64,000 bases of DNA from the NCBI GenBank assembly GCA_964057225.1, contig OZ059894.1, positions 17,298,001 to 17,362,000 on the forward strand, read 5' to 3'. Below, one piece after another: positions 1-23,700 of the stretch. Origin of the DNA: Auanema rhodensis. Taxonomy: Eukaryota; Animalia; Nematoda. A program made the position numbers and the translations under genes. Every line of letters begins with the position of its first letter. The first letter of the stretch is position 1. Under the pieces are notes generated by a model that worked only from the letters and a program-made list of their open reading frames with translations, had not been told where the DNA came from and ran no database searches.

Positions 1-38
1 AGAAGAAGTACACTTCTCGAAAAAAAATGTTAAAACGT

Positions 39-110
39 GGGCCGAGCCGGGGATCGATCCCGGGACCTCTCGCACCCTAAGCGAGAATCATACCACTAGA
101 CCACTCGGCC
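39..110 (-). tRNA. tRNA-Pro(AGG)
   Basis: Reverse complement GGCCGAGTGGTCTAGTGGTATGATTCTCGCTTAGGGTGCGAGAGGTCCCGGGATCGATCCCCGGCTCGGCCC; 72-nt cloverleaf; anticodon arm CTCGC-TT-AGG-GT-GCGAG. Confidence 0.97.
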
Positions 111-284
111 TGAAATATCCATTCACTACGATGAACCTTCTACGTTTCCATAATTATTTTTAACTACATATTATTAATCTGATATCTATAGGTGAATACT
201 AAAGCTTAAAATTAATTGAATTTCAAGAGAACTTTCACTAAATACTAAAAAAAAGTACACTTCTCGAAAAAAAATGTTTAACGT

Positions 285-356
285 GGGCCGAGCCGGGGAT
301 CGATCCCGGGACCTCTCGCACCCTAAGCGAGAATCATACCACTAGACCACTCGGCC
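285..356 (-). tRNA. tRNA-Pro(AGG)
   Basis: Same sequence as the copy at 39-110. Confidence 0.96.
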
Positions 357-531
357 TGAAATATCCATTCACTACGATGAACCTTCTACGTTTCCATAAT
401 TATTTTTAACTACATATTATTAATCTGATATCTATAGGTGAATACTAAAGCTTAAAATTAATTGAATTTCAAGAGAACTTTCACTAAATACTAAAAAAAA
501 GTACACTTCTCGAAAAAAAATGTTAAAACGT

Positions 532-603
532 GGGCCGAGCCGGGGATCGATCCCGGGACCTCTCGCACCCTAAGCGAGAATTATACCACTAGACCACTCG
601 GCC
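532..603 (-). tRNA. tRNA-Pro(AGG), D-stem variant
   Basis: One substitution (gaattatacc versus gaatcatacc). Confidence 0.9.
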
Positions 604-778
604 TGAAATATCCATTCACTACGATGAACCTTCTACGTTTCCATAATTATTTTTAACTGAATATTATTAATCTGATATCTATAGGTGAATACTAAAGCTT
701 AAAATTAATTGAATTTCAAGAGAACTTCCACTAAATACTAAGAAGAAGTACACTTCTCGAAAAAAAATGTTAAAACGT

Positions 779-850
779 GGGCCGAGCCGGGGATCGATCC
801 CGGGACCTCTCGCACCCTAAGCGAGAATCATACCACTAGACCACTCGGCC
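779..850 (-). tRNA. tRNA-Pro(AGG)
   Basis: Consensus copy. Confidence 0.96.
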
Positions 851-1025
851 TGAAATATCCATTCACTACGATGAACCTTCTACGTTTCCATAATTATTTT
901 TAACTGAATATTATTAATCTGATATCTATAGGTGAATACTAAAGCTTAAAATTAATTGAATTTCAAGAGAACTTTCACTAAATACTAAAAAAAAGTACAC
1001 TTCTCGAAAAAAAATGTTAAAACGT

Positions 1026-1097
1026 GGGCCGAGCCGGGGATCGATCCCGGGACCTCTCGCACCCTAAGCGAGAATCATACCACTAGACCACTCGGCC
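1026..1097 (-). tRNA. tRNA-Pro(AGG)
   Basis: Consensus copy. Confidence 0.96.
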
Positions 1098-1272
1098 TGA
1101 AATATCCATTCACTACGATGAACCTCCTACTTTTCCATATATATTTTTAATTGAATATCATTAATCTGATATCTATAGGTGAATACTAAAGCTCAACATT
1201 AATTGAATTTCAAGAGAACTTAAACTAAATACGAAGAAGAAGTACACTTCTCGAAACAAAATGTTCAAACGT

Positions 1273-1344
1273 GGGCCGAGCCGGGGATCGATCCCGGAAC
1301 CTCTCGCACCCTAAGCGAGAATCATACCACTAGACCACTCGGCC
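1273..1344 (-). tRNA. tRNA-Pro(AGG), variant
   Basis: One substitution (cccggaacc versus cccgggacc). Confidence 0.92.
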
Positions 1345-1519
1345 TGAAATATCCATTCACTACGATGAACCTTCTACGTTTCCATAATTATTTTTAACTG
1401 AATATTATTAATCTGATATCTATAGGTGAATACTAAAGCTTAAAATTAATTGAATTTCAAGAGAACTTTCACTAAATACTAAAAAAAAGTACACTTCTCG
1501 AAAAAAAATGTTAAAACGT

Positions 1520-1591
1520 GGGCCGAGCCGGGGATCGATCCCGGGACCTCTCGCACCCTAAGCGAGAATCATACCACTAGACCACTCGGCC
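1520..1591 (-). tRNA. tRNA-Pro(AGG)
   Basis: Consensus copy. Confidence 0.96.
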
Positions 1592-1766
1592 TGAAATATC
1601 CATTCTTTACGATGAACCTTCTACGTTTCCATAATTTTTTTTAACTGAATATTATTAATCTGATATCTATAGGTGAATACTAAAGCTTAAAATTAATTGA
1701 ATTTCAAGAGAACTTCCACTAAATACTAAGAAGAAGTACACTTCTCGAAACAAAATGTTGAAACGT

Positions 1767-1838
1767 GGGCCGAGCCGGGGATCGATCCCGGGACCTCTCG
1801 CACCCTAAGCGAGATTCATACCACTAGACCACTCGGCC
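1767..1838 (-). tRNA. tRNA-Pro(AGG), D-stem variant
   Basis: One substitution (gagattcata versus gagaatcata). Confidence 0.9.
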
Positions 1839-2013
1839 TGAGATATCCATTCACTACGATGAACCTTCTACGTTTCCATAATTTTTTTTAACTGAATATT
1901 ATTAATCTGATATCTATAGGTGAATACTAAAGCTTAAAATTAATTGAATTTCAAGAGAACTTCCACTAAATACTAAGAAGAAGTACACTTCTCGAAAAAA
2001 AATGTTAAAACGT

Positions 2014-2085
2014 GGGCCGAGCCGGGGATCGATCCCGGGACCTCTCGCACCCTAAGCGAGAATCATACCACTAGACCACTCGGCC
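2014..2085 (-). tRNA. tRNA-Pro(AGG)
   Basis: Consensus copy. Confidence 0.96.
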
Positions 2086-2260
2086 TGAAATATCCATTCA
2101 CTACGATGAACCTTCTACGTTTCCATAATTATTTTTAACTACATATTATTAATCTGATATCTAGAGGTGAATACTAAAGCTTAAAATTAATTGAATTTCA
2201 AGAGAACTTCCACTAAATACTAAGAAGAAGTACACTTCTCGAAAAAAAATGTTAAAACGT

Positions 2261-2332
2261 GGGCCGAGCCGGGGATCGATCCCGGGACCTCTCGCACCCT
2301 AAGCGAGAATCATACCACTAGACCACTCGGCC
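2261..2332 (-). tRNA. tRNA-Pro(AGG)
   Basis: Consensus copy. Confidence 0.96.
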
Positions 2333-2507
2333 TGAAATATCCATTCACTACGATGAACCTTCTACGTTTCCATAATTATTTTTAACTGAATATTATTAAT
2401 CTGATATCTATAGGTGAATACTAAAGCTTAAAATTAATTGAATTTCAAGAGAACTTTCACTAAATACTAAAAAAAAGTACACTTCTCGAAAAAAAATGTT
2501 AAAACGT

Positions 2508-2579
2508 GGGCCGAGCCGGGGATCGATCCCGGGACCTCTCGCACCCTAAGCGAGAATTATACCACTAGACCACTCGGCC
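2508..2579 (-). tRNA. tRNA-Pro(AGG), D-stem variant
   Basis: Same variant as 532-603. Confidence 0.9.
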
Positions 2580-2754
2580 TAAAATATCCATTCACTACGA
2601 TGAACCTTCTACGTTTCCATAATTAATTTTAACTGAATATTATTAATCTGATATCTATAGGTGAATACTAAAGCTTAAAATTAATTGAATTTCAAGAGAA
2701 CTTCCACTAAATACTAAGAAGAAGTACACTTCTCGAAAAAAAATGTTAAAACGT

Positions 2755-2826
2755 GGGCCGAGCCGGGGATCGATCCCGGGACCTCTCGCACCCTAAGCGA
2801 GAATCATACCACTAGACCACTCGGCC
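2755..2826 (-). tRNA. tRNA-Pro(AGG)
   Basis: Consensus copy. Confidence 0.96.
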
Positions 2827-3001
2827 TGAAATATCCATTCACTACGATGAACCTCCTACTTTTCCATATATATTTTTAATTGAATATCATTAATCTGATA
2901 TCTATAGGTGAATACTAAAGCTCAACATTAATTGAATTTCAAGAGAACTTAAACTAAATACGAAGAAGAAGTACACTTCTCGAAACAAAATGTTCAAACG
3001 T

Positions 3002-3073
3002 GGGCCGAGCCGGGGATCGATCCCGGAACCTCTCGCACCCTAAGCGAGAATCATACCACTAGACCACTCGGCC
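3002..3073 (-). tRNA. tRNA-Pro(AGG), variant
   Basis: Same variant as 1273-1344. Confidence 0.92.
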
Positions 3074-3248
3074 TGAAATATCTATTCACTACGATGAACC
3101 TTCTACGTTTCCATAATTATTTTTAACTGAATATTATTAATCTGATATCTATAGGTGAATACTAAAGCTTAAAATTAATTGAATTTCAAGAGAACTTCCA
3201 CTAAATACTAGAAAAAAGTACACTTCTCGAAACAAAATGTTCAAACGT

Positions 3249-3320
3249 GGGCCGAGCCGGGGATCGATCCCGGGACCTCTCGCACCCTAAGCGAGATTCA
3301 TACCACTAGACCACTCGGCC
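3249..3320 (-). tRNA. tRNA-Pro(AGG), D-stem variant
   Basis: gagattcata variant. Confidence 0.9.
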
Positions 3321-3495
3321 TGAAATATCCATTCTTTACGATGAACCTTCTACGTTTCCATAATTTTTTTTAACTGAATATTATTAATCTGATATCTATA
3401 GGTGAATACTAAAGCTTAAAATTAATTGAATTTCAAGAGAACTTCCACTAAATACTAAGAAGAAGTACACTTCTCGAAACAAAATGTTGAAACGT

Positions 3496-3567
3496 GGGCC
3501 GAGCCGGGGATCGATCCCGGGACCTCTCGCACCTTAAGCGAGATTCATACCACTAGACCACTCGGCC
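3496..3567 (-). tRNA. tRNA-Pro body with anticodon changed to AAG (Leu)
   Basis: + strand gcaccttaagcgag gives CTCGC-TT-AAG-GT-GC; also carries the D-stem variant. Confidence 0.75.
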
Positions 3568-3742
3568 TGAGATATCCATTCACTACGATGAACCTTCTAC
3601 GTTTCCATAATTTTTTTTAACTGAATATTATTAATCTGATATCTATAGGTGAATACTAAAGCTTAAAATTAATTGAATTTCAAGAGAACTTCCACTAAAT
3701 ACTAAGAAGAAGTACACTTCTCGAAAAAAAATGTTAAAACGT

Positions 3743-3814
3743 GGGCCGAGCCGGGGATCGATCCCGGGACCTCTCGCACCCTAAGCGAGAATCATACCAC
3801 TAGACCACTCGGCC
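3743..3814 (-). tRNA. tRNA-Pro(AGG)
   Basis: Consensus copy. Confidence 0.96.
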
Positions 3815-3989
3815 TGAAATATCCATTCACTACGATGAACCTTCTACGTTTCCATAATTATTTTTAACTACATATTATTAATCTGATATCTAGAGGTGAA
3901 TACTAAAGCTTAAAATTAATTGAATTTCAAGAGAACTTCCACTAAATACTAAGAAGAAGTACACTTCTCGAAAAAAAATGTTGAAACGT

Positions 3990-4061
3990 GGGCGGAGCCG
4001 GGGATTGATCACGGGACCTCTCGCACCCTAAGCGAGAATCATACTACTAGACCACTCGGCC
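3990..4061 (-). pseudogene. Degenerate tRNA-Pro(AGG)
   Basis: Substitutions in the acceptor stem, T arm and D loop (ggcggag, gattgatcacggg, atactactag). Confidence 0.75.
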
Positions 4062-4236
4062 TGAGATATCCATTCACTACAATGAAACTCCTACTATTCC
4101 ATATATATTTTTAACTGAATATTATTAATCTGATATCTATAGGTGAACCCTCAAGCTTAAAATTAATTGAATTTCAAGAGAACTTCAACTAAATACTAAG
4201 AAGAAGTACACTTCTCGAAAAAAAATGTTAAAACGT

Positions 4237-4279
4237 GGGCCGAGCCGGGGATTGATCCCGGGACCTCTCGCACCCTAAG
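4237..4279 (-). pseudogene. tRNA-Pro 3' half, interrupted in the anticodon stem by LTR A
   Basis: tRNA sequence stops at ...caccctaag and non-array sequence starts at 4280. Confidence 0.92.
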
Positions 4280-4707
4280 TATCGCGAATGCGATTATTCA
4301 TCATTCAATCGATGCAATCTCATCACGTTGGCAGATGAGATTCACGGGCACTCTGTTTTATACCACCGTCGCGGACGGTCGCTTTTCTCTCTTCTCGTTG
4401 CTGTCTTTATCTTATCACTCATCTAGTCTGAACCACCGTTCTATTCTTGTCCTTCCGTAAGACTATCTTTTGTCTCATTAGTGATGTATATCTAGTCTTA
4501 TTACATTTCACTCTAGTCTTCTATGTACTTTATCTAGTCTTAGTATATATCTTCTGGGCCTTATATTCTGTATTATGTATATCTGAATAGCATATGAATG
4601 AATCTTTCTTCCTCTAATAGTCTTTCATGTTAACAGGGCATAGAATAGAAAGTGTGAACCTGGGAGGCTATTTGAAGAGCTTTCTATCTTCAAAATGGTG
4701 CATCGGC
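4280..4707 (+). mobile_element. 5' LTR (~4280-4694) and tRNA-Gly primer-binding site (PBS) of BEL/Pao element A
   Basis: Begins tatcgcgaatgc (compare TGTCGGCGAATGC of element D and TGTCGCGA of element E), ends ...caaa, and is followed by TGGTGCATCGGC (4696-4707), complementary to a tRNA-Gly(GCC) 3' end. Confidence 0.75.
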
Positions 4708-5655
4708 ATCACTTTCTACTCTATGACCTTTCTATTGCGCTACTTTATCTTTTTTCTTTTTTTTCTTTAAGCCAGTCTGCTCGTTAATAGTGACTCGTTG
4801 GATGTCCTCTACAGTATAAGTTCAATGATCTAAATACTCTAAAGGAATCGTATGTCAGTACAACATAATTGGTTGTTAAATGTTGTCTAGATATCAGTGA
4901 TAATTAAACATTATTTAAAATTTTGGTTGATACCATATTTTTGTACCACATGATTACAGAAAATAACATAGTGGGTTATTCGCTATATAAACTCTATTGG
5001 ATTACCCAATGGCTACTTCCTTTAACTTGCCGGCAGTGACTCAGCTGGGATTGATCACCCCTTATTATGTTTCACAGAAGAATTTGCGAGAGTATGAGAA
5101 AAATGCAGACAAAGTACCAACAAACACATTTTATGGCAATCTTATTTCTACTGACTGAGGACAGTGAGAAACAATGATATGAATTACGCATTAGCAGAGC
5201 TACCGTCTAAAAAGGCTATTTATTAATTTATTATTTGATTTTGAGACCTTTTAATATCTTTCGTAACTTTCAATATTCATTGTAAACAATTTTGATTGAC
5301 TTCGAGTGTAAAAGTTATTTTAACAATTGTGAATCAATTGAATAGGTGACTAAAAGGCATCTTAGACCAATTTCTCCTTGCTATATGAGTAATGCTGTCT
5401 GTTTCCTCATCTGTAAAGGAGTCAGTATCTTAGAGATCAACGATTATTTGTGTGGAAGGAGCCTATCAACAAGTAACGTCTGTTGACCTACTTGTTGATG
5501 TTTCTTTGGTACCCTTGCACTCTCGGTAGGTGTTGTTTATATAAAAATGCGAAAGAGTTCCGAGTTTTTAATATTTACGGCTTGTTTTATAGTTTTTGAA
5601 TTTTTTTATTCATCCATTGTTTGTAAATCAATTGTTTCCAACCATATGAGTCATA

Positions 5656-6606
5656 TGTAACGACCAACGGGTCAATGAGAAAGGTCAGAGTCCAAATCAT
5701 GAAATTCATAAAATTTATATATTTTATCTTATATAAGATCATCACCCACGTCCTATAGGACAAAATACATTAACTATATTGTTAAAATCCTACGCAGTTG
5801 AAAATTTCTGTGAAAAATCACAAAACATCATAATATCCAATCCTACATAGATGAGATAATGATAAGACACGAAAGAGCTACGAATTATCATCCTACGCAT
5901 GTTAAAGCATAAAATATAAATATCAGCAAAGGTTAAATGAGATATTTCCAACATTTTGCACCAAAAAGTCGATTTTAGCAAATATGTTGAAAAGATACGC
6001 GAAAAAAGACAAAAGATGTTGCCATCTGTTCATTGACCTGGTGCGGCGCCATTAGCACCACGCAAACATCTCTCACACATTATCTAGGTCACCATCGAAT
6101 GACATGGAATATCAAAACATTTTAAAATGTTATGAGAAGTTAACCCACTGGTTTTGTTTCAAATCCATTAAATTATCTCATTTAATAATCTTACATATAC
6201 TTTTTGCAGATCAGCTCCTCCCTCTTAACATCCCACACGGCCTAGCTGTCAGACAGGTCATTCATTCCGCCGCTACAACCAGCCACAGCACCTGACGCCA
6301 TCTGCTAACCTATTCACCAGAGAAGGACAATCGACATCAAGGATCCTCAAGGAGAATCAAGTTAGTTTTCATTTGTTCGCATTAACACTTTAACCGCTTA
6401 TTGAATTTGAATTGATACTCTCTGGTATCCTTTATACATTTACATTAAGTTGGTAAGTTATTTTATAATTTCAATTTGTTTTATTTTAATTTCATTATTT
6501 CACATTTGACAGTTTATATTTCATTCACATATGTTATACAATATCCTTTGTTCATCTGTCCAGAAATAAATCTTTTGTCTCAAATTACTCATCCTTTTCA
6601 TACACA
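5656..6606 (+). mobile_element. Putative 5' LTR of BEL/Pao element B
   Basis: Starts TGTAACGACC, has splice-like signals and AATAAA (~6566), ends ...TACACA, and lies upstream of the element B gag. No partner LTR and no clean PBS, so the ends are uncertain. Confidence 0.4.
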
Positions 6607-8435
6607 TACTTTCTGATCAATCAAACTATAATATTTTGAATACTTTTTGGATATCCTTATTATATTTCAACCAATTAATATTAATATTGGTATTATATTT
6701 TTTGATAAAAAACAAGAGCATATTTAGTATCAAATTACTCAGAAAACTTTACTGAATTCATCAAAGCTAGTTTGCTCACATTTTTTGATCGATTTTGGGA
6801 AACTCAATTTTTTCTCTCTATTTCCTACAGTCATCTCTCAACTTGAATTGTTCTCTCATCTAGTGAATCATCCAATTTTTCTTTTTTTAACCAGAGAAAG
6901 ATACTTATTGAATTATCTTTGCCTGAACAATCTCAAATTTTAAAAATTTAAAAATATACTAATTTAACTAACAAAAAAAAAAAATTATATATATATTCAA
7001 AAGATAAAACATACATAATTAAACGTAATTAAACGAAACAGTAACAACTACACGAAAAAAATAACAGTATAACTCTCCAAAGAAAAAACTGTTAACAAAT
7101 ATTCAACTAAATATTCATTGTACCTTCTAATAGTGAACTATTTGCTTATCCATATTACTTGCACATCTTTTCTTATCTTCACTTTTTTTTTCTCCTATTT
7201 ATATTATACATATATTGTTAAATCAACTCATATTTATATTGTTATTCCTTCTATCGACAGCTATTATATTCGGACTTTAACTCAGTTGATTTTCAATAAT
7301 CAATAAACAAATTAGCTAGATTAAACACAAAATTAACTTGAACATTAATATTTCTCTTCAAACAAAATGATTATGAGTCGTTCTTCTCCATCGGAAAAAG
7401 AAACTCGTAACCTGACTGCCTTAGCAAGACAGTTAAGTTGTTTAAAAAGAAATATAACTCACGCGTTGAAGTTGTTCAACACGGTGAAGGAGGACATCCT
7501 CCCGCACCATCAAGCATTGATGCGTATATATTATAAAGCCATCCCGGTTGGGGACGTCTTCCGATCACTACGAGATCAGTTAGACGAACATCGAGTGATG
7601 CTTGAGGCACGCACCCATGTGGACTACCCAGCAACTTGGTTGGAATTATACCAAGGTAGCTATAAAAGGATGTTGGCCAAATACCCTCAGACCATGAAAG
7701 CTCATGAAATCGACCAACTTGTCACCAAAAACATTGGCGAAGAACATCCGCCCACAGTTGCAAAACTGATCAAGGGCATTTTGGACTATTGCGATGAGAG
7801 AGATCTCATGGTGAACACAGGCGAAGTTGAGGAATATACTCAACTTATCCAACTTCGCCGAGATGAACTCGATGACTATCAGAGTTCATTTGACTCTACA
7901 GTACATGACTCAACAACATTGCAAAATGACATGAACAGAATGAAATACTCCAGAAAAAACTTAGAGATGAGTTTCTTTTCTGGAATACAAAAACATTTGA
8001 ACATCACACCAGATAGAACACGACGACACAGAACACAAAGTACAAGTTCTGATGAAATCGGTTCCACACAAAGACAACCTACTCAAAAACGAGTGTACAC
8101 TACTCGAGCGAACAATAGTGACGTTATGATCGCATCTCCTCAGCACGATATTTCAATGCTTGAACCAAACAGTAACTCCACTCTTTTGAACGATGATCTA
8201 ATGCCGATATCAGAAAATGATCTTGTTCATTCTTTTAACAATCTGAGTACTGGTTCTAATAGCTTGGAAAGAGCTAGAGCGGATGCTGACAATGTTGGAA
8301 CCCCACTTGGAGCAGCTAATAAGCGGAAAGCTCTCTCACCATTGAGACACGCGCACTACGATTCTCGACCAATTACAGTCGAACAACATACAAACAATGC
8401 TCCCAATCATTGGTCAACTATGCAACAGAACATAG

Positions 8436-8816
8436 CGTTACATATCGTTTCTTCCCGTCTTTTCATGGTCGGAAGATATATGTACTTCTACCTTGTTCCT
8501 TAGGTAGGCAGACCCGAACGCCCCGATTTCCTTATTAAGACAAATACTTAAAGAGAAAAGGATTCATTATCAGATAACAAGAAAATACAATATAAGAATT
8601 ACATTAAGAAAGAATATAAAGAGATCTAATAAAGTATTAAATAGAGTATATATATAGATGATATAGAGATGAGACTCACATGACTATAAGACAACCTATC
8701 TGGGTTAGGCCAGAAGCAAGAGTGTCATGTGTGTCCCATGTTGTAGGCGGGGCTTGTTCAGGCTCCCGCTATTTGAATAGCGCGCACATGTTTACCATGT
8801 GCTTGCAGATGTGACA
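8436..8816 (-). repeat. 3' LTR of V1 (TGTCACAT...ATGTAACG)
   Basis: 381 bp, preceded by the purine tract AAGGTGGGGGGA; near-identical inverted copy at 17525-17905. Confidence 0.88.
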
Positions 8817-9839
8817 TCCCCCCACCTTAAAAAGTTGAACGTCCTCGTTCAAAAACAAAATAAATTAATTCACTTTTTAAGATAGTTGGAAAAAAAAATC
8901 ATGGTGTAGTGGATAAAAAAAAATGTATACAATACGATTTGAAAGTTTAGCTATTGTCTCTTCAAGTTTGTTGAATTCGAAATGTAGTCGAGTAGATTCT
9001 ATTCCATTCACTTGAGTAGTGAAATGCTTGCAAACGAGAGCTTTGCTTCTAAACCATTCGACTGTGATATAGTCGTTCATTTTCTTGAGTTGTACAGGTA
9101 CGGTGTTACCCTGAGAATAGGTCGAGCCCGTTCTGTACAAAAAAAATGAAAACTTGTTTAACCCGTATGACTAATGTCCATAAGGTGAATACAAGTAATG
9201 ATTAAGCATAAAAAATAGCAAGATTCACAAGAGAATGTTGAAAAAATCTACTCAATGAGAGTTGAAGTAATAAAACAAACCCTTGTAAAACAATAGCAGA
9301 CTTCTCAGAAAAAATCAATCAACAACAAAGAAGTGTTACAATCAGAAATGGCACAAAATAAAATAAAAAATTTCAACAATTTGATTTTGTTAAAAAAAAC
9401 TACCTTCAAGAAATTGTGATAACCGGAATAGATGTTGTCCGTTGGTAAGGTTTGACGAAGTCCTTGTGTACTCTTCTGCTTTTTCATTTATCTGTTTGAA
9501 CCACGACGAAAGATCTTTGAACTGCTGTAACTAAATAAGGCCCTTCGAATGAAGGTGTTAGTTTTTTTCGTGTAGAATTCACTTTTATCATAACTAAGTC
9601 ATTAACCTGAATTTCTTTATTTTGTGTTCTATTTCGTGTATTGTACCGTTGTTCATTCTTCTTTGTTGTTGTGTGACATACAAAAGGTATGGCTCTGGTG
9701 ATCCTTGTTCCTGATCTTTGTTGTCCTCGCTGATGTCCGAGTCCGACAGGGTGGCTGGTGAGTTAGATGAATATAAGAGCGTGGAAGCAACTAGACTCCA
9801 GTAAAAACGTTTGTGACAATGGCGTCTGATGAAGAAGGA

Positions 9840-11729
9840 TCGTTGATAATTGGTAGTAAATTTTAGTCCAGTGGAGGAGTCTGATACAAAAGACAAATTA
9901 TGCGAATAATACCATAAGTGGATGTACCGTTCCGGAACACCCAATCGGCCCATAAGACGTGTCTCATATTCCAGCGCGAGCGCACCTTGAGATTTATCAT
10001 ATTTCGATATGTCAATCTCTGTTGACTGTAAGGTTTGCACGATGTCCGGTGGCATGTCAGATGTTAGTTTATTCGCAAATTCATCCGGAGACAAGTCTGT
10101 GAGAATATTAATACCAGGGGTCAAGGATGATAATACCCGGTTCTTTATGGTATTCATAACCGCACAGAAAACTGCGTTAACGTCTTTTTCCGAGTAAACA
10201 ATGGTTTGGAGAGCCGGGTACAAGTTAGCAGCATCCCTTGTTAAATTCGGCTTAGGCTGTCGTTTGATCGAAAATTTAAAGTTGTCCAAAGGTATCTGTT
10301 CCAGACTTTCAGTTGCCTCAATTTTCTCATAAGTAGACGACGGTTGTCGTTGAAACCGCTCGTCGATGTCTTGAGAATTTATTTCAAACGGTGTGGTGTC
10401 GATCGAGGGAAAAAACGAGGCAATGACCGAGTCAACCATCTCTTCAGCCACGACGTCTATATTACACATTAGCGTGAGTTCCGGAACACAAAAATTTCTC
10501 TTATTCGCAGCTAGCAGAGCCTCTCGGAAAGTCACGGGCCTAATCAAGGGAGTCGGCAGTTGAAACAATGGTGTCATATGGTCATATTTCTGCTGTTGAA
10601 ATAGTCCTTTATCAGGTGTAAACTTCGCGTTAGACATAACAACTTCTAAATCTGAGTTATGCATGTCGTACGTGTCCATTATATTGTTGGTGAAACCGTC
10701 TCCCGGGAATAATTGATCTGCCAGTATTTGTATACCGATAAGATTCGCAGGTAATTTTATACAGGAAGACAACGGAATTGATGGTGATCCGATAGTGGAC
10801 ACTTCATTTTGCTCTAGACGGTCGACATTAGCAACACAATTGATGCTGAGAATATCCAAAGTCTTTGGTGACATAGTATTGAGATGCTCGGCACCTAGAT
10901 AAAACACCTTCTTTCCTAGTTGATGACATTTTTTATTCAAAAATCTTGCGACCACAAGTTTGTGCACTGGTAATGATGATGGTAGACAAACGGTTAGATT
11001 TCCTCTAGACTGGTGCGATAAGTCTGTGGCGTACTGACGTATGGATGGTGCATTAGTTATACGATCGCTGTCGACGTCTATGGCGGAGTGCTTAGACGTT
11101 GGTCGTTGTAAAGACACACATTCAGATAAATATGTACTCCCTCCCCTCATCGTCGATAGAGCCTTCGGGTACTTTGTAAGTATAAATCTGCTAAGTATAT
11201 CATCTGTGAAAGCAGTGAAGTACGTTAACGATGAAGTATGCCTAGAGATCGCCACAACAGCGTATGCCTGCCTCAAGTAAATCTCATCAGTCGGGATGGT
11301 AGACAGTCTAACTATCGCGATGAATCTAGATTGCATTCCTTGGTACTCATGCACCGTTTGTACCCCTGAGAAACCCTTTGATATTAATGTCTGCTTATCA
11401 CTCTGCGTAAAGGTAAGGTATTTTGTGGTCTTAACCTTAGGAATCGAGTCACTACTAAGGATCTTTGTGATGAATAGTGACCGTGTTGTTGTGTTCGTCG
11501 GTCCAGCACACATACCATCAGATGTGGTGATACCCATGTCCGAATTAGCGGTGATATATAATGGGTTAAGAATTTCACAAACGTCCCTTGGGCATCTGTA
11601 TGAGACGGATCTTGTTTCTCCGACCTTGAATACTCGAGATAGGTACCTATACTGCATAACAAATGTCGTGCCCAATGAATTTACAAATGGAATCTGGCAT
11701 AGGACGTGGCACCTGAGAAATGAATACAT
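9840..11729 (-). pseudogene. Endogenous viral element: helicase motifs III-VI and N-terminal part of an alphavirus-supergroup RdRp, truncated at motif B
   Basis: QIPF, SYRCPRDV, LTFTQSDK, TVHEYQG, VVAISRHT; RdRp PALQTIVY and EIDISKYDKSQ (motif A); ends at NYQR before the expected KSGD and GDD. Confidence 0.93.
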
Positions 11730-12824
11730 AAGATGAGTGCTCCAGGGTGGACCATAATCGCCTCGTCAATAAATAGCTCATCGCACGTGAAACGTCGTTC
11801 GGGATGCATTAGGTATGATGTGATTGTACGAACACGTTTCTCATTCGGGGTTATCTTCCACCCAAGTCTTTCAACATAATCGTCCTTTCCGGCTCTTGTG
11901 GCGACCAAGACACATGACTCATCACTCTCAGATAATCTCTTCGCAATCTCTGTAGTTTTTCCGCATCCGGGGGCAGCTTGCACAACAAATATATCAGTAG
12001 GCACCAATAAATCACGGAAATCTGACACTTTCTTACGAATTTCGTCATCCAGAGCGAAGAGACAATAGTCACTTACGACAGATACTCCCGCAACCTCAGT
12101 GTCAATACTAATAAACTCCCCGTCATAAAACTTCACCCGGTAGTCGCGAATAGAACACGAAGCCGACGTGAGTGCACGCCCCGTCGAGGAGATGACAACA
12201 TAGTTACCGGGTTCACGTGAAATCGTCTCACGAGCACGTTGATCTTCGTTATATATACGTAACACTCTGTTATGATTCGATACAGCGCTGGCATGGACAG
12301 CTGTGAGATAACGCATATATTCGTCGACGACTTCGGTCGGGGATGGGTAAGGTATTGATCCTCCGGTGGAGACTTCTTCTGCAGTCTTTTGTCGTTCTAA
12401 ATGTGGTTCCTGAGGACCTGTCTGTGATTTACTCCTATAAAATTTATTCAGATAGTATCTATAAATCGAGTCATTTTCCTCTGCAGGATGTGTATTACAT
12501 ACGGTCTTATAGACTGGACGAATCCTGTGAGTAGATGAATTCACGTACACTGAGCGACAAATAACGAAGACAGTTGAAGCCATCAAAACGCGAAGAGTTG
12601 TCCTATAGGCGCAGGTGATGGGTGCGACAAAAACTTCAACAGATATCGAATGTCGTAGAGGAACTACTGGGTGTCCGCCGGTGAATCTAAGGAGTAAGTA
12701 CGCAGGAAGTTGCGCTAAGGAATGTGCAAATGAGTACAAAGCGGCAGCAGCACCCGAGAAGACTCCAATAGTTCCGAAGGTATAAACCTGTCTCATAATG
12801 TAAAGAATGTTAATTCCGATGTTA
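11681..12824 (-). pseudogene. Endogenous viral element: replicase fragment with SF1 helicase motifs I-II (Martellivirales, nege/virga-like)
   Basis: Walker A VQAAPGCGKTT, Walker B LFIDEAIMVHPG; frameshift near 11697 into the next ORF. Confidence 0.9.
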
Positions 12825-15800
12825 CAGGCTCCCGCTATTTGAATAGCGCGCACATGTTTACCATGTGCTTGCAGATGTGACAATAGCACGAAATTTTCTT
12901 GGATTTTGGGAGTTGTTCACAGCAGTTATTGATGTTCAACCCTTGTCAGAGATTGAAAAGTTTTCCATTTTGCTCGACAAACTTTCTGGTCCAGCTGAAG
13001 AATGTTTACTGTGCTTGCCACGCATTGATGAGAGTTACAGTAAGGCAAAGGCCATCCTCATGAAAAAGTACGTGAACCCCTCTATGTTAGACTCTAAACT
13101 ATACGATTCACTGAGAGCCTTACCGGCAGCACAAGACAATAGTGCTTCGATACTACATACGATCCGCAAAGCTGATCAAATCATATCGATGAGGATACGA
13201 TACAGTCCTAATGTAGATCACACAGGACTTCGCGTCATACTCTTCTCAAAATTACCTTGACACATCTATAACAGCATATACAAATTGAAACAGCATACTA
13301 CAATCACGTCAATCATTGAATACATCACGGAAGTCGCGAAAGCATTGCAACTTGAAGAAGCCGATAAAAACGCAATGAGTCAGAAAAATAGCAATACTGT
13401 TCATATTGCAGCAGGACAACTACACACTAGTCGGCGAGAACAGTTCAATAACCAGAAGTGCAATCTCTGTCTTGGCAATCATTCTCCCACCAAATGTTAT
13501 TCTATTCAATCGGTAGAAGAGAAGAAGAAGATAGCTGTATCCAAACAGCTATGCTTCAAATGTTTTTCAAAGACACACTCAGCCATTGGATGTCACGCAC
13601 CGAATTGTCACCGCTGTGACAAAACACATCATGAGTCTCTGTGTCAACGCGATTCTCGATCCCGGAGTAATAGTAGGACTAGAACTCACTCGAAGGATAG
13701 GATGAATCGGCATCCACCACAAACGTACAAAGGTTTTGAGGCTAATACAACAAGATCACCTCATCGGAACAACGAAAACAACAGAAAAGACCGCAGTGCG
13801 TCTATGAGACACTCATCGAGAAGCAAATCACCCTCATATTCACGGAGCAGATCACCTTACCCACAACGAAAACAATACAGAGATCGCTCCCCACGCCAAC
13901 ATATCTCGACTGCTACTGCACTCACTTACCCTTACGACCACATTTCAAATACATCAGGACCAGTCAATGACAAGGCCTTTGAATTCAGAAGAAACCACGT
14001 CGGAGTAGTTAGTGTGACAGTATTTGATTGCCACGATAATCCACATCATGTATACGCCTTGTTGGATTCGGGTTCACAAGTAGCTATCGTACGTAGATAG
14101 TTGATCAACCGCTTGGGATTACCATTCGATGAAGATGTACGCATGAGAATGGAAACCGCGGGGGAACAATTTCTTCTTAAAGACACGCAAGCTATTATGA
14201 TCTATCTCTACAATAACGATGGAGCGTGCATATCTGCCCCATGCGTTATAATGGATAAGTTTCTTTCAGCCATACAACCGTTAAGACTGACAAATGCCGA
14301 CCAGCGTTTTATACGCCAGAACATTGGCTACTTATCTCGCAAATTGAATGATCCTATAGAGATTGATATCATCTTGGGCATTGCTGAGGTCCATGCGAGT
14401 ACCATCTATGATGAACCAATTATGCAATTGCCAGATTGCAATCTAGTCGCTCACCCCACTTTCTTTGGATATACACTATCGGGAAGGTATGACTTAGATA
14501 ACAACAACCCCACATACGCGGATAATGTAATCGCATGCACAACAAAAATAGATGACGATGTTGATCTCACAAAAATGTGGTCCATGGAATCTATTGGGAT
14601 TCGAGACAACATATCAATCGAAGAAGAACAACAAGGGGTACTGAGCCAGTTCAATGAACAAGTAAGAAAGACATGGGAAGGCGTACACGTATCCTTTCCG
14701 TGGAAGGAAAACAAACACGCACTGGCCGATAACTACAGTATCGCATTAGCTAGACTGCGACAACAATTCAATCACGCAAAGAGCAATCCCGAGATGTGGG
14801 CAAAATACAATGAAATTTTTCAACAACAATTGGAGAGTAATATCATTGAAGACGCACAAATTCACCCTGATAGCTCCCCAACTTATTATATACCGCATCA
14901 AGCGGTAGTTAAGTTGTCGAGTAACACTACCAAAGTACGTATAGTACTTGATGCATCCTCTCATCGACGAGGAGAACTATCATTGAATGATGTTATACTA
15001 CAGGGTCCCACAATCTTACCAAATCTAACAGGTCTATTGTTACGATGCAGGTTTGGAAGACGCCACTCGATTCCTTTGGATTCACGATCTTTCGTTACCA
15101 CTTGAACAGGATAATATACGGGTGTTCCGATTTAACAGAGTACCATTCGGAGTCAATGCTTCTCCATTCCTCCTCGCTGGCGAAATTCAATTTGGGCTGA
15201 AATCCCATTTAGACACACAACTTACGAGTTGTATCATAGATAATCTTTATGTAGACAATCTCATTCTCACCTTTGATGAGACCTCACAAGGAGTAATGTT
15301 ATACAAAAAGTGTAAGTCTGCGTTCAACGATATGAAGATGAACTTGAGAGAATTTTGTACTAATGACAAGAACACTATGAAATGCATTCCAAAACTGCAA
15401 AAAGTTTTGGGAATTTATTGGGGCTCACACCTAGACACATTCAGTCTTGCACTTCAAATGGATTATACAGGTAACAGTATAACCAAGCGACTTGTACTCA
15501 GTACAGCACACAAAACATTTGATCCAGTAGGATGGTTGAGTCTTTTAATCTTATTATCACGACACTTCGTACAAAAACTGTGGACACTCGGTTACGCATG
15601 GGATGAACCAATCTCTCCCGACCTTCAACGTGAATGGAAACAAATATGCAGTTCGGTTCATGGATACCGATACCACGTACCTCGAAACATTCGCAATGAC
15701 CACGTGAACGAACTCTGCATTTTTGTAGATGCTAGTACTATCGGATACGGTGCGGTAGGATATCTACGTACACTAGACCAAAAATCTCATGTTACTAGTA

Positions 15801-16777
15801 CGAGTACACTTCCTCATGGCGAAACAGCGATTAGCACCACAGAACAAAAGCAAATCACAGAAAACAGATAAAAATAAAATGCAACCGCTCACTATTCCTA
15901 GACTTGAACTACTTTCATTTTTTATCGGATGTCACATCATTGAGTTTCTGTTACAAGAAAGTAAATTGAACATATCGATCGTACGAATCTTCTCAGATTC
16001 GGAAATATCACTTGCGTGTGTATGCAAACCAAATCCTGATGCAGGAATATTCGTCGACAACCGAGTTAGATCGTGTCGCGTTATCATTGATAAAGTCAAA
16101 GACAGTTATAATTTCTTTATTTACCACGTCGATACAGACCACAACCCAGCTGATCACGCAACGCGTGGACTTACAAGGGAAAACATTGACAAATCCACAT
16201 GGTTCACAGGACCGAAATTCTTACAAACGCACGACAAAGAATGGGAGATGACCAGACCCTATACTTATGTAGAGGACGACTCACAAGTACTGATCGCTAG
16301 TACCTCCATCACTACATTTGTCGACGATCCATCAATTTTCCGATATCAAAGCTCGCGATTAACATGTCTCATACGAACAACCGCATACGTACTTCGGTTT
16401 ATACAACTCTTACAACAACGACGTCTACATCGCATCAACAACGACAACGAGATCGCTCTAAACCCTTCAACGATATCAGCTGAAGAATATAAGGAGGCAG
16501 AGAGAGTTACTTATATTGATGTACAGAGTACAGTAGATATAGAAGACAAGAGATGGAAACACCTTGGCCTCTATCACGATGAATTCGGTGTCATTCGATG
16601 CAAAGGTAGACTGGAACACATGGAAGCTGAAGAGGATTGTATACATCCTATTTTCATACCGGATAATCACCCATTTGCTTCTATCATGATAAGAGACATG
16701 CACACCAAACTTTTCCACGCCGGTGGTAATCATTTACGTTCCGAAATACGACGACGATTTTGGTTACCAAGACTTCC

Positions 16778-17905
16778 CCTTCATTCTAAGGGCCTTATTT
16801 AGTTACAGCAGTTCAAAGATCTTTCGTCGTGGTTCAAACAGATAAAGGAAAAAGCAGAAGAGTACACAAGGACTTCGTCAAACCTTACCAACGGACAACA
16901 TCTATTCCGGTTATCACAATTTCTTGAAGGTAGTTTTTTTTAACAAAATCAAATTGTTGAAATTTTTTATTTTATTTTGTGCCATTTCTGATTGTAACAC
17001 TTCTTTGTTGTTGATTGATTTTCTCTGAGAAGTCTGCTATTGTTTTACAAGGGTTTGTTTTATTACTTCAACTCTCATTGAGTAGATTTTTTCAACATTC
17101 TCTTGTGAATCTTGCTATTTTTTATGCTTAATCATTACTTGTATTCACCTTATGGACATTAGTCATACGGGTTAAACAAGTTTTTATTTTTTTTGTACAG
17201 AACGGGCTCGACCTATTCTCAGGGTAACACCGTACCTGTACAACTCAAGAAAATGAACGACTATATCACAGTCGAATGGTTTAGAAGCAAAGCTCTCGTT
17301 TGCAAGCATTTCACTACTCAAGTGAATGGAATAGAATCTACTCGATACTACATTTCGAATTCAACAAACTTGAAGAGACAATAGCTAAACTTTCAAATCG
17401 TATTGTATACATTTTTTTTATTCACTACACCATGATTTTTTTTTCCAACATCCAACTATCTTAAAAAGTGAATTAATTTATTTTGTTTTTGAACGAGGAC
17501 GTTCAACTTTTTAAGGTGGGTGGATGTCACATCTGCAAGCACATGGTAAACATGTGCGCGATATTCAAATAGCGGGAGCCTGAACAAGCCCCGCCTACAA
17601 CATGGGACACACATGGCACTCTTGCTTCTGGCCTAATCCAGATAGGTTGTCTTATAGTCATGTGAATCTCATCTCTATATCATCTATATATATACTCTAT
17701 TTAATACTTTATTATATCTCTTTATATTCTTTCTTAATGTAATTCTTATATTGTATTTTCTTGTTATCTGATAATGAATCCTTTTCTCTTTGAGTATTTG
17801 TCTTAATAAGGAAATCGGGCCGTTCGGGTCTGCCTACCTAAGGAACAAGGTAGAAGTACATATATCTTCCGACCATGAAAAGGCGGGAAGAAACAATATG
17901 TAACG
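16778..17905 (+). mobile_element. V2: second, 5'-truncated copy of the carrier element (3' region, PPT, LTR 17525-17905)
   Basis: Near-identical inverted copy of 8436-9555; the LTR again ends ...ATGTAACG. Confidence 0.9.
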
Positions 17906-20104
17906 GATCAACAAAATACACAAAGACAATAATCATCAAGGCAAACATTTCACGCTTATTCAATTGAGACAAAAATTCTACATACCAAATATAACCGGTG
18001 TCATCAGACAAACATTGAAAAACTGTGTGACATGTAAAAGATTTCAATCACATCCTTATGAATTACCAGATATGCCATCGCTACCAAAAGATAGAGCGAT
18101 TCTTACAAGAGCATTCTTTTCAACAGGGTGTGATCTTATGGGCCCCTTCACCCTTTGAAATGGGTCTAAAGTCCATATCTGTCTGTTTACATGCATGACA
18201 ACTAGAGCAATTCATTTAGAGGTAGTCACCAATTAATCCACAGTTGATTTTATGAATGCATTCACTAGATTTATATCACGCCGAGGTACTCCAGAAATTA
18301 TGCGTAGTGACTGCGCAGGAAACTTTATATTGAGCTCAAAAATATTAGAAACCCTTGAAAATACATCGGATTACAACGAAAGAAGCTTACTAAATACACT
18401 AGCACAACAAAAAATTAAATGGATATACAACACTCCATTATCACCCTGGAAAGGTGGATGTTGGGAACGTTTAGTAGGTGTAACCAAAGCTTCACTCAAA
18501 AAATGTTTCATTCCTAGTCGAATGTCCCTGGATGACTTACACACAGTCATTGTAAAAAAAGAAGCTATAATTAATACACGCCCACTCACCCATCCACACC
18601 CAGATAATTTAGATACTCTACCCATAAGGCCAATTGACTTTTTAACATCAGCCATAAAGTTTTCATTACCTGAAAACAACGCGGATACTCATATATTTGA
18701 TATCCATAGCGATATTCAAACGATTCAATCAACAGAGCAAGCGCTAGCATCTAAATTTTGGAAACGATTTCAAGAGGAATATCTAACAAGCTTAAAAAAT
18801 ATATTTAAGCATAAACACCATAGAAAAAATCACACAAACATCTTCCCCCAACCAGATGAAATAGTATTGATACAAAATGACATGTTGCCCCGAGGAACAT
18901 GGAAGCTTGGGCGCATCATAGAAACAATCACTAGTTCAGACGGCAACATACGTTCCGCAAAAGTAGTAACTAGTAATGGAAACATAATTAGCAGATCAAT
19001 CAATCAGCTCTATCCTTTGGAGATAAGAAGCAACATACAGAACAACAGTACTCCAATAGAAAGTATACCCGAACAGAATCCCCATGAACCAATAGAACAT
19101 GAAAGACATGAGGATAATAATATAAATAATACCGAACCCAATCATTACATTGAATATGAATCGGATAACTCTGAACATGACAATACATACACTCCAGAAG
19201 AAGAAAACAATGAGGAAATCACACATGGTCAAAATAAAAGTCAAACACAGGCTCGAAAATCGTTAAAACCAAAAACATCATTTGAGAAAGATAATGTCAG
19301 TGAGAAGGACAATATACAAGCCATTCCATTAAAAATGTCATATGCTCTACAACAAAGAAAGAACAAGATAAACCCTAAAATAGCAGCTGATATAATGAAG
19401 GCTCTCTCTTTACCTATTAAAATAACTTTGAGTCATGCTCAAGAAATGAATAACTGCCAGGACCATAACATGTTCACGAAAAAACTCATAGCAAATCCTC
19501 ATTGTTCGCTAGAATTAGCAACATTGACTATCATAATAATCATAATGGCAGTTACACTCATAGTCTCTTGTCTTTGTCGCATAGTGTATAGCCAATACAA
19601 ATATAAGACATGGTCAACGAATACTCGAAATATGCTTAATGTGCTTAATATTCAAAACAGAAATCAAGAAGTCCAAGAAGAAGAAGACCTCGAAATGGTC
19701 CAAAACACAACAGACAACAATGAAACTACAGATATGACACATATAAACACACGAGAAGACGGTAACAGAGAACAAGAAACCTCTCAAAACAATATTTATC
19801 CCACGCTAAACTTCACAAGAAAAACACCGAAATTCTCTATCCTCACCAGAGGATCTCAATCCTCCTTACCTTCATTATTTGCAATAATCTTAGTTGTATA
19901 CATAGGAAACTCCCATTCTTGCTCCGATGTTCATGTACAACATTATGTTAACATACGTTGCGATCAAAACTTAGAGTGTTATCACGAATATAGTCAAGAC
20001 ATAATATTCTCTCCCGGAACAAAACAGTTATGTATCAACATAATACACTCTAATCATGAAATTGGCCAATTCAAAATAACTAAACTATACACGGAACATA
20101 TCAA
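17906..20104 (+). pseudogene. Integrase and truncated envelope of BEL/Pao element C (possibly the 3' part of element A)
   Basis: Own zinc finger (IHKDNNHQG...CVTC), GCDLMGP, SDCAGNF, GGCWERLV, RSINQLYPLE; in-frame TGA at 18156; then ANPHC, a TM segment and the start of a Gc-like domain, cut off at the tRNA at 20105. Confidence 0.88.
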
Positions 20105-20176
20105 GGCCGAGTGGTCTAGTGGTATGATTCTCGCTTAGGGTGCGAGAGGTCCCGGGATCGATCCCCGGCTCGGCCC
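20105..20176 (+). tRNA. tRNA-Pro(AGG)
   Basis: Consensus sequence in the opposite orientation to the 1-4279 array; native upstream flank replaced by element C. Confidence 0.92.
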
Positions 20177-20705: not shown

Positions 20706-23700
20706 TGTCGGCGAATGCCTGACTAGAAATGAAATACAATAATTTAACCTAGAAAGATAACTCTTCTGAAACTCTAAACCATTGTCTAATAACCTTGTAA
20801 TTGTATCATTAACCTCTTGCGCAACATTCTTAAAGGATATTGAACTTTTATCACCTCTATAGTTTACATTGACCTGACCTTTGTATTCAAATATCAAATA
20901 TCACCTTCAAGCTAAATCATATATAAAGCCCAAGAAACCTTCACTCTCACTCTTAATTTAATTCTACCACTGAACTTATACCGATCTTATAATAAACCTT
21001 TCTCATTTAACCAACTGTTTGGATTCGCCACTAACTCATATTATCCCCATTAAACGGGGAACAACCGAGTATAGACGCTCGTCATTGGGAACATTAAAAA
21101 CCCAAATTGGTGCAACGACCAAACCAGGTATTAATTGTTAGAAACTTTCTTATCATATTTTTTTCTCTTTTTCATACTTTCCATCTCACTCTTCTTCACA
21201 TTTTCCTGACGATGAGACCGAACTAGCACTTACCGCACCGCATACAACCCTTTTTACATCACTGCGCATTTCGAAAACGAACATTAGCAAATTACTTTTG
21301 AAACCACCTCAACTTTCCATACCCACATTCAATGGAGATAACAAAACCTTTCCGACATTTTGGAGACAATTTAAAACGCTCATTCACCAAGACCCTGACC
21401 TCAATAATAGGCAAAAAAGCATTTATTTAGCTGAAGCTCTTAAAGGTTCAGCACGAGTTCATCTTGAAAATAAACCATTAGATGGCACTGCGTATGAACG
21501 TATTATATCTACTCTTAAAACCACTTACGCACCAAAACTAAAAGTTGACTACCGTATTCATGATGAACTGGTGAAATTACCTCCTGCAAAAAATGACCCC
21601 ATGTCAGTTAGATCTCGCGTGAATGAAATCAGAGCACTTCTTGATCAGCTTGAGACTGATACACTTTATAATTCTCAAGACCCCGCTTGGGTCAAACTTA
21701 TCACAACTAAATTTCCTATTGATATCATCAATATGCTCTGTTGGAGATCATCTAGGGCAACCTCTATAAAACAACTACTAAGAAACATTGAGGAAACGGC
21801 CGACTCAATGGAAAATTTTTCAATTTATTCTTCTAAATCTCCTTTTATCCCGCAATACCATGCTCAAACTAATTCAATTTCTCCCTTGAAACATAACTCA
21901 CATATTACTGCTGTTACGAAAACCGAACGCCCATGCGTATTTTGTGACCAAAACGGACATCGATCCGCAAAATGTTTAACCATACATAATCCTCAACAGA
22001 GGAGAGACATAATAAAACAAAAAAACAGGTGCTGGATTTGTTTCAGTCCTACACACACTAGCACTAAGTGTACCTTTGATAAATGTAAAATATGTAATAG
22101 AGATCATCACCCATCTCTTTGTCTCCCTCCTGCTTTATCAAAATCATCTAATAAAAAAGCAACAATGGGTATCAATTGCTCTATTTCGCAATCAACTCAC
22201 ACTCCACCTTCGCCCGCATATCTTATGACTTCTAAAGTATCAATTTTTAACCCCCATACAGGTAAGTTCCACACCAAATTATTGTTTTTCGACCCTGGAG
22301 CAACTCAAAGCTTCATTTACGAGCCGGCAGCCAAAGAATGCCAGCTCAAAACTTTAAATTCCCAATTAATCACAGCAACCGGTTTCTCCGGGAGCTGTGA
22401 GGCATTTAATTCTTTAACGGTCGAAGCAAGTTTAAGAACTCCATTTGGAAAAAATATCATACTTACGCTCCTCACCTCACCCAAACCTCTCACAGGAAAA
22501 CTAAAGAGCTGTCAACTTTCTCTAAAAGACAAAAAAGCTCTAGAACAATCTAATATAACCATTACTAACCAATTGGTGGATGGTGAATTATTCATTCCCG
22601 ATATTTTGCTAGGTATGGATTGGTGTGATACAATCATACATGATACCAAACCTACTATACTTCCATCGGGATTGAAAGTCAAACATACCCAGATTGGACC
22701 CTGTATTTACGGTAAGCAAATACCGAACGATAATATCGCAGCCATAAATACTCTTATTGTTAACCCTGTGATACCAGAAGACGTTATGATTAAACAACTT
22801 TTTGAAATAGATAACTCGGGAATTTCTCCACACGAAGGAGCCTTGAACCGATCGGAGCTATTCTTCAATGAATATACTTCGCTAATAAAATTCGACAAGG
22901 GTTTTGTTATGGCTCCATTACCTCTTAAATCAAACGCCACAAAAATTCAATCCAATCGAAGCATGGCATTAGCCACTCTAAACAGATTACAGAAATCTCT
23001 CAAAGAGGAACATAACCAGCTACAACACTATCATCAAACCATTATGCGATATATAGAGGAAGGTGTGGTGGAACAAGTTCCACTTACTTCAGAGAACTCT
23101 TTGCTCTACTACATGCCGCATAGAGGGGTATGGAAGCCCAACAAGAGCAAACCGCTGAGGGTTGTGTTTAACGCTTCAGCAAAGCAAAAAGGCCAACTCT
23201 CATTAAATGATGTTACGGAAACAGGTGAAAGTTTTAACAATAAAATCATAGATATTCTGATAGGGATACGGATCAAAAAGTACTTCCTCATGTGCGATAT
23301 TGAGGGTGCCTTCACCCAAATAAGGATAACTAATGATCATAAAGATCTCTGCCGCTTTCTCTGGTTACGCGATCCTCACAAAGGTACCACTCCAGATAAC
23401 ATTTTAGAATTAAGATTTAACCGACTGGCGTTTGGCATAACAGCCAGTCCGTCCATACTGAATATGTCACTCTACGCATTCTTGCAAAGCCTAGAGTCGC
23501 ACTTAGTTCCGGAAACCCTACGGTACCTATATGTGGACAATATCTTCTACACGACAAACAGCTCAGAAGATTTACATAGCATATATGAAGAATCTAAGCA
23601 GATTTTTTCTCGAATATCTATGAACATAAGAGAGTATTATAGCAACTACACCAACTTCAACTCAACCGTACCAGACAAGGATAAACATCCAGATCTGAAC

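Follow-up and report, generated by a model that had tools for sequence, protein, structure and literature searches.

Capture of non-retroviral RNA viruses by long terminal repeat (LTR) retrotransposons has mostly been deduced from proximity, and germline cases that retain both ends, a target-site duplication and a measurable switch point are few. Geuking reportedly described hybrids of lymphocytic choriomeningitis virus and intracisternal A particles (LCMV-IAP) in the mouse in 2009. In nematodes, capture of an RNA virus by an LTR element already has a precedent in eBxnv-1 of Bursaphelenchus xylophilus, a single-copy RNA-dependent RNA polymerase (RdRp) of a positive-sense single-stranded RNA (+ssRNA) virus lying within an LTR retrotransposon (PMC5177903). 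As described in the accessible portion of that report, eBxnv-1 is invariant among carrier strains, its nearest relatives are insect viruses, and copy-choice by reverse transcriptase (RT) was proposed as its origin (PMC5177903). Here we describe an insert in the nematode Auanema rhodensis, in a stretch of 64,000 nucleotides of contig OZ059894.1 (assembly GCA_964057225.1, positions 17,298,001 to 17,362,000; hereafter the window), in which a nege-like helicase-RdRp fragment lies, at a single locus, between the two ends of an LTR retrotransposon.

The locus resembles several described systems and differs from each. eBxnv-1 derives from a nodavirus and sits in a degenerate Bel/Pao element with two LTRs, a primer-binding site (PBS) and pol; it has kept its catalytic motifs and is expressed. 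In contrast, the insert described here carries a nege-like helicase-RdRp without PBS or pol, its 5' LTR is 58 bp long, and the GDD motif is absent. It also offers a measurable junction overlap together with a duplication, neither of which is mentioned in the open part of the eBxnv-1 report. LTR retrocopies of host mRNA (Tan et al. 2016, PMC5131818) are alike in that foreign RNA replaces the interior of the element. In the available text, however, those retrocopies result from two switches in the internal region, keep both LTRs and can move again, whereas our locus has a viral passenger and its second junction within the LTR. LTR-associated endogenous viral elements (EVEs) of Aedes (10.1101/127498) also place virus and LTR element on the same strand (543 of 614 LTR/EVE pairs), within a retrotransposon nest and with Ty3/gypsy and Pao/Bel carriers. 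They differ in that the evidence, in the sections available, consists mostly of proximity statistics and concerns flavi-, rhabdo- and chuviruses in an insect host. Viral superfamily-1 helicases of insect retrotransposons (PMC5563155) likewise place a negevirus-related helicase inside a retrotransposon, but those covered by the accessible text are long-kept in-frame fusions, mainly in long interspersed nuclear elements, whereas ours is frameshifted, unfused to an element open reading frame (ORF) and confined to one locus. Orbi-like EVEs have been described in Brugia (PMC12548735) and Martellivirales in nematode transcriptomes (PMC12770441), as far as the open portions of these sources show. Neither a nege-like EVE in a nematode, nor the pairing of a nege-like virus with a nematode host, nor a natural virus capture ending in the unique 3' region (U3) of an LTR was found in searches of the open-access literature; subscription papers or supplements may list this locus.

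Read evidence was drawn from short-read contigs of five public runs (X5, X7, X8, X9 and X10, of 13), and depth was taken as a contrast, not as copy number. On the minus strand, from 12882 to 8436, the insert consists of LTR nt 1-58, about 2,985 nt of virus, about 1 kb of carrier 3' region, a polypurine tract (PPT) and a complete 381-bp LTR, with ATAG at 8432-8435 and 12883-12886 (Table 1). The first-pass annotation had proposed these LTR ends, PPT and flanking ATAG, and they were confirmed: the 58-bp piece differs from the insert's own LTR at none of its 58 positions and from a second LTR in the window (17525-17905) at one. Virus and element have the same strand orientation, carrier sequence flanks the passenger on both sides, and loose contig ends in X8 begin at 8436. 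The full LTR contains a TATA-like run at nt 161 and AATAAG at nt 281; because the 58-bp piece ends upstream of the TATA-like run, it likely falls within U3. The repeat (R), unique 5' (U5) and PBS segments do not follow this piece, so that the 5' LTR comprises 58 of 381 bp. Since R, U5, PBS and gag-pol are missing, this copy is predicted to be immobile. The insert is real, young and well preserved.

On sequence grounds, the passenger is a replicase fragment of a nege-like +ssRNA virus of the Martellivirales. Pfam helicase and RdRP_2 matches are above cut-off and occur in this order in one ORF with one frameshift, and both viral Pfam domains are present in every one of the 104 matches obtained against proteins 1267-3615 residues long. 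The top match, at 35%, is Drosophila River Almond nege-like virus, which was also first of 743 in a library of 1.84 billion, and the alignment to relative P0003 is collinear across 625 residues. The top matches are viral, not cellular or transposon helicases, and the helicase-RdRp identity given in the first-pass annotation holds; the Martellivirales motifs it named are borne out as to both domains and their order, in a frame that is shifted and stops before GDD. The arrangement is that of negeviruses and nege-like viruses (Nelorpivirus, Castlerea, Loreto, Drosophila River Almond), at 35-41% identity. In a quick tree of 61 RdRp pieces, the fragment sits on a long branch (1.04; best identity 41%) inside a starred set of 51 rows with nege-like viruses, but outside the starred set of 29 rows of named nelorpiviruses. 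It groups there with two other long branches (support 86), far from Xingshan nematode viruses 1 and 2. Further negevirus features, namely the methyltransferase and FtsJ domains, ORF2 and ORF3, would lie beyond the stretch that was captured. Searches of viral and metagenome contigs with short peptide patterns for close relatives of the RdRp piece found none.

Viral homology is confined to about 12360 down to 9840, which upholds that part of the virus span first annotated as 12824-9840; its first 465 nt are assigned by open frame only. In the first frame, residues 31-195 did not outscore shuffled sequences, and a hydropathy comparison of the 5' viral part gave no signal. The frame is open there for 155 codons, and 2 of 20000 shuffles were stop-free; this segment is likely a variable part of viral ORF1. 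The helicase frame breaks near 11690-11701, in motif III, where 11 nt stand in place of the 10 codons found in 49 of 50 readable relatives; contigs from X5, X7 and X8 reproduce the break without any gap, and the frameshift presumably arose at insertion or afterwards. At its other end the viral fragment stops at YQR, a median of 37 residues before GDD (116 relatives). The 3' junction is thus read as having cut off GDD, and because this motif is missing, the fragment as sequenced cannot give rise to a functional polymerase.

Ten runs of three studies contain the viral stretch, nine of them with half or more of its words, and the viral pieces listed, from contigs of three studies, each show 0 other letters. 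One X5 contig spans the virus and both inner junctions, and an X8 contig bridges the 3' junction. The 5' junction is also crossed by an X9 contig with 63 letters on the viral side and 30 on the LTR side, and the right outer junction by an X8 contig with 28 letters on the LTR side and 0 other letters. The junctions are thus present in short-read contigs at both inner and the right outer positions. X10 contains 0.32 of the words at low depth, with no cover at 12660-12815, which does not imply absence. The viral part has the lowest depth of the region: in X5, virus stands at 91.9, sister gag at 195 and LTR contigs (nt 1-58) at 3323-3650, and in X9 at 10-16, 56 and about 1300, respectively. Other LTR copies leave at 12825 and other carrier 3' regions leave at 9846; the virus is therefore not cargo of the whole carrier family, and the annotation of a one-off capture rather than stable cargo stands. 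Domesticated helicase cargo would be recognized by an intact in-frame fusion in many copies; here the helicase is frameshifted, its depth is the lowest, and copies leave at both junctions. Among the contigs listed, the virus was found in no other setting, except for one depth-3.8 piece in X9 and adapter-like ends in X8. Across X5, X7, X8 and X9, the ratio of viral to sister-gag depth goes from about 0.47 in X5 to 0.25 in X9, which hints weakly at variation between samples in either the insert or the sister copies. At position 12851, one X5 contig matches the first 32 nt of the LTR and then continues with at least 255 other letters, possibly a diverged LTR or another truncated copy.

The 3' junction carries the evidence for a template switch. 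Carrier sequence runs to 9846, where loose ends occur in 4 of 4 runs, and the viral frame is conserved to 9840, with YQRKSGD in 107 of 211 relatives and other xQR forms in most others. The boundary had been placed at 9839; the carrier in fact overlaps the last viral codons by 7 nt, and the map order holds. The probability that seven carrier bases continue YQR in frame by chance is about 0.0008 by composition, and 4 of 1023 carrier 7-mers do so. The viral side of this overlap is deduced from conservation. An overlap of this length is as expected of an RT template switch and adds support for a switch onto viral RNA; in the accessible text on LTR retrocopies, the median overlap is 6 bp at 25 of 29 junctions (Tan et al., PMC5131818).

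The target is a BEL/Pao element, carrying a DUF1759 gag and a Peptidase_A17 pol, both expected of this group; a homologue of the 5' half of gag was looked for and none was found. The duplication measures 4-5 bp, depending on whether the last LTR base belongs to the LTR or to the target. Random pairs of target positions match over 4 nt in 0.5% and over the 5-nt ATAGC in 0.16% of 200000 draws. The gag halves on either side of the insert are in phase. Sister gag copies in X5 and X9 connect 8436 to 12895 via 97 letters, of which this locus has 7, and the 30 sister letters before 12895, seen in X5, X9 and X10, differ from this locus; we take them to be the usual start of the DUF1759 motif. The first-pass claim that excision restores gag, marking one clean integration, is overstated, since about 90 nt are missing beside the site and an in-frame stop lies at 13258, even though the halves are in phase. 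The target is 1-2% divergent from its sister copies (7/332, 9/703 and 4/582 letters in X5) and is therefore older than the insert, or was copied apart from it. We regard the duplication as probably genuine and the missing stretch of about 90 nt as a separate event; even with this gap next to it, the duplication supports insertion by integrase.

Table 1. Coordinates in the window of the insert, its junctions, its target and the second carrier copy, with the evidence for each.
Feature	Position	Strand	Evidence
Target, 5' half of BEL/Pao gag	7367-8435	+	Sister contigs connect to 12895; no Pfam match of its own
Left-hand target-site duplication, ATAG, or ATAGC with base 8436 assigned to the target	8432-8435	+	Sequence; sister gag contigs align to 8436
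Full 3' LTR of carrier, 381 bp, TGTCAC...TGTAACG	8436-8816	-	Sequence comparison; high depth
PPT	8817-8828	-	Same place in second carrier copy and at X10 loose end
Carrier 3' internal region	8829-9846	-	97.8% to 16778-17905 over 8436-9555; multi-copy depth
3' junction, 7 nt both carrier and viral YQR continuation	9840-9846	-	Bridged by contigs X5 9805-12839 and X8 9805-10291
RdRP_2 domain, N-terminal part (274 of 440 profile positions), truncated at motif B and lacking GDD	9840-10655	-	Pfam E 1.2e-50
Viral superfamily-1 helicase, two frames	11214-11986	-	Pfam Viral_helicase1 E 5.7e-14 and 2.9e-11
465 nt in the same open frame, lowest depth, no detectable homology	12360-12824	-	Open frame
5' junction, GCCTG/TAACA	12820-12825	-	Contig X9 12762-12854; X5 contig to 12839
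5' LTR remnant, LTR nt 1-58	12825-12882	-	Upstream of TATA-like run
Right-hand duplication and the next 7-8 nt, beyond which sister gag has about 90 nt more	12883-12894	+	Contigs; X8 12855-12923, 0 other letters
Target, remaining BEL/Pao gag and broken pol	12887-16777	+	DUF1759 E 5.4e-12; Peptidase_A17 E 5.1e-26
Virus-free second copy of carrier 3' region, PPT and LTR, fused to BEL/Pao pol	16778-17905	+	97.8% identity

Both outer LTR ends and the 4-5 bp duplication are present, and we consider it very probable that the insert arose by RT capture, through a switch at the 7-nt overlap, and integrase insertion. The setting would be a germline cell with both the virus and an active LTR element. 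Minus-strand synthesis would copy the LTR, the PPT and 1 kb of the 3' region, after which RT would move at the 7-nt overlap to plus-sense viral RNA in RdRp motif B and copy about 3 kb 5'-ward. The DNA end, lacking a PBS, would then pair in U3 near nt 58, with strong-stop DNA or a second RNA, rebuilding the left attachment end. Finally, integrase would insert the product into the older BEL/Pao gag, in a retrotransposon nest next to a tRNA array. Because U3 has no counterpart at the 5' end of LTR-element RNA, before integration nt 58 is reachable only via plus-strand strong-stop DNA or the 3' U3 of a second RNA. Aberrant transfers, and proviruses that lack a 5' LTR but have intact duplications, occur in other retroviruses. 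That the short 5' end came from a jump into U3 before integration is favoured slightly, at little better than even chances. Of the mechanism in the first-pass annotation, the template switch is supported by the 7-nt overlap, and for its strong-stop jump at nt 58 a later deletion is about as likely.

A number of observations weigh against this account, above all at the 5' junction. There the LTR reads GCCTG-AACA and the chimera GCCTGTAACA, a near-microhomology that had been pointed out earlier; the resemblance is seen, but the match to LTR nt 59-62 amounts to 4 nt after a 1-nt gap, and a reading as the LTR's end is equally good, since the same bases fit TGTAAC, which occurs once in the LTR, at nt 375. 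The LTR starts with TG but ends in TAACG, not CA, in both window copies, giving a U5 end of CG. The locus is prone to deletion: about 90 nt are missing from the target 8-12 nt outside the short LTR end, the helicase break leaves about 19 nt fewer than in relatives, and letters absent here occur in other copies at 8987 and 9781. Among asymmetric proviruses of human immunodeficiency virus type 1, the 5' LTR was shortened in only 2 of 26, according to the available text (PMC9278108). The LTR-side overlaps of the contigs across the 5' and right outer junctions, 30 and 28 letters, fall below the bar of 31, and no contig among those listed bridges the left outer junction.

The proneness to deletion is in keeping with a standard two-switch capture (LTR-PBS-leader-virus-3' region-LTR) and a later chromosomal deletion that took away the LTR from nt 59 on, together with the leader and possibly additional virus. 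Such a history would leave an identical map, including the 58 identical bp and the duplication, and the insert and its immediate surroundings do contain several other deletions. Polymerase-theta repair in nematodes typically leaves deletions whose overlaps are short or imperfect, and the starting architecture is documented in eBxnv-1 and in Tan-type retrocopies. It needs one extra event, however; a longer 5' end was not found among the contigs listed, in 4 runs, and the 4-nt match to LTR nt 59-62 would be unneeded. We consider this history unlikely, though it deserves serious weight. The fit of TG/TAAC to the LTR terminus, with a 2-nt overlap and TGTAAC unique in the LTR, could instead mean that the jump of the minus strand took place at the U5 end of strong-stop DNA and that a later deletion between two TG dinucleotides removed nt 59-376 of the 5' LTR, leaving GCCTG+TAAC. 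The following base is A, however, whereas both window LTRs end in G; two events are needed, and the reading frame continues across these bases, so that we regard this course as improbable. Equally doubtful is patching at the DNA level, in which a break in an integrated carrier was repaired with free viral complementary DNA (cDNA) by microhomology-mediated end joining. Such patching would fit the rearranged state of the region, the disappearance of whatever the virus replaced, and microhomology at one end or both. Against this, a 3-kb viral cDNA made by unrelated priming must land in a retrotransposon in the same sense, the 0 of 58 differences in the LTR piece give no sign of an older insertion (a weak test), and no virus-free allele appears in the best 15 of 16 joints. 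It is very improbable that the insert reflects an assembly artefact or contamination, or that all members of the family stably carry the virus: the region is repeat-rich, the contigs are all from short reads and 6 of the 10 virus-containing runs are possible sources of this DNA, but the non-source runs X7, X8 and X9, of three studies, cover the virus with 0 other letters in the pieces listed, X8 and X9 contain junction contigs, all virus-containing runs are presumed to be DNA, and other carrier copies leave at 9846 and 12825. Autointegration of one molecule was rejected, as the insert has its own 3' region and LTR, 2% from the other copy.

The carrier is likely of gypsy type, judged by a broken integrase-tail-like peptide at 9409-9693 (minus strand; stop at 9484-9486) that contains a GPY motif. 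The motif is placed as expected, before the 3' untranslated region, and Pfam SH3_Tf2-1 matches it at E 0.009-0.057, below cut-off. A GPY/F module at the integrase C-terminus is a Ty3/gypsy hallmark, as given in the accessible part of the source (PMC2836005). A homologue of the carrier tail was sought and none was found, the PDB yielding only a chance match (E 1.5).

At 16760-16790, a BEL/Pao pol is joined to the carrier 3' region of the second, virus-free copy at a joint that includes CCTTCATTC and may reflect either another template switch or a deletion within the nest. That 16778-17905 is the target's normal 3' end was rejected, as sister pol contigs continue 836 nt (X5) and 691 nt (X9) past 16700. 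The fusion is likely local, since these contigs are unbroken past 16700, which we infer would be impossible through the high-copy carrier region. Beyond the carrier LTR, 17906-20100 holds a different, A-rich BEL/Pao integrase ending at a tRNA-Pro gene.

Upstream of the insert, 6000-8003 has about 10 times the viral depth in X5, like the carrier 3' region (X5, X9), and other copies diverge at 8003, inside an open frame; this leader and the start of gag also occur in a multi-copy relative. From the depth, which resembles that of the carrier 3' region, and the departure of copies at 8003, the carrier may represent a composite family that is non-autonomous. Two LTR-like starts, at 4280-4710 and 5656-6050, are each followed by a PBS-like TGGTGC (4696 and 6039), and 5653-5662 also matches the final 10 nt of the carrier LTR.

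The window opens with tandem 247-bp units (1-4279), each with a tRNA-Pro(AGG) gene; 17 genes lie in 39-4061, one with anticodon AAG (3496-3567). Further tRNA-Pro units, in both orientations, lie between retrotransposons at 20105-20176, 28645-28716 and 30105-30423. An apparently intact BEL/Pao element (20706-28405, plus strand), with a 2292-aa frame and 402-bp LTRs that are 99% identical and end in AA, lies inside a tRNA-Pro gene with a 5-bp TGGTC duplication. It encodes a phlebovirus-G2-type envelope whose best PDB match is 7a4a, presumably the hookworm Atlas virus Gc. A BEL/Pao gag fragment (28897-29451, minus strand; DUF1759 E 5.5e-10) also lies between tRNA units, and the elements adjoining tRNA genes hint at targeting of tRNA arrays. 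A 3990-bp inverted repeat (30504-34493 and 45510-49499), 100% identical and 11 kb apart, is either a recent inverted duplication or an assembly artefact; we assume from their look that its exons are those of an adenylyl cyclase. A dehydrogenase gene has six introns (by eye) of 45-93 nt with T-rich AG acceptors; these introns and the envelope described above make a nematode host probable. A genome-wide count of intron spacing gave a flat profile.

The insert encodes nothing able to work, and it is not a new kind of system. Taken as a whole, a one-step route is a tentative proposal, somewhat short of even in our estimation. A gypsy-type RT would switch once and rescue its PBS-less product by a jump into U3, a single short overlap fixing the virus in the germline as an immobile insert. 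A nege-like lineage known mostly from arthropods would by this route have reached the germline of a nematode, and, lying antisense to the BEL/Pao transcript, the captured piece could supply antiviral small RNAs. The fragment indicates an undescribed nege-like virus in a probable nematode host and, given reads of that virus, the copy-choice model would be testable base by base at this locus.

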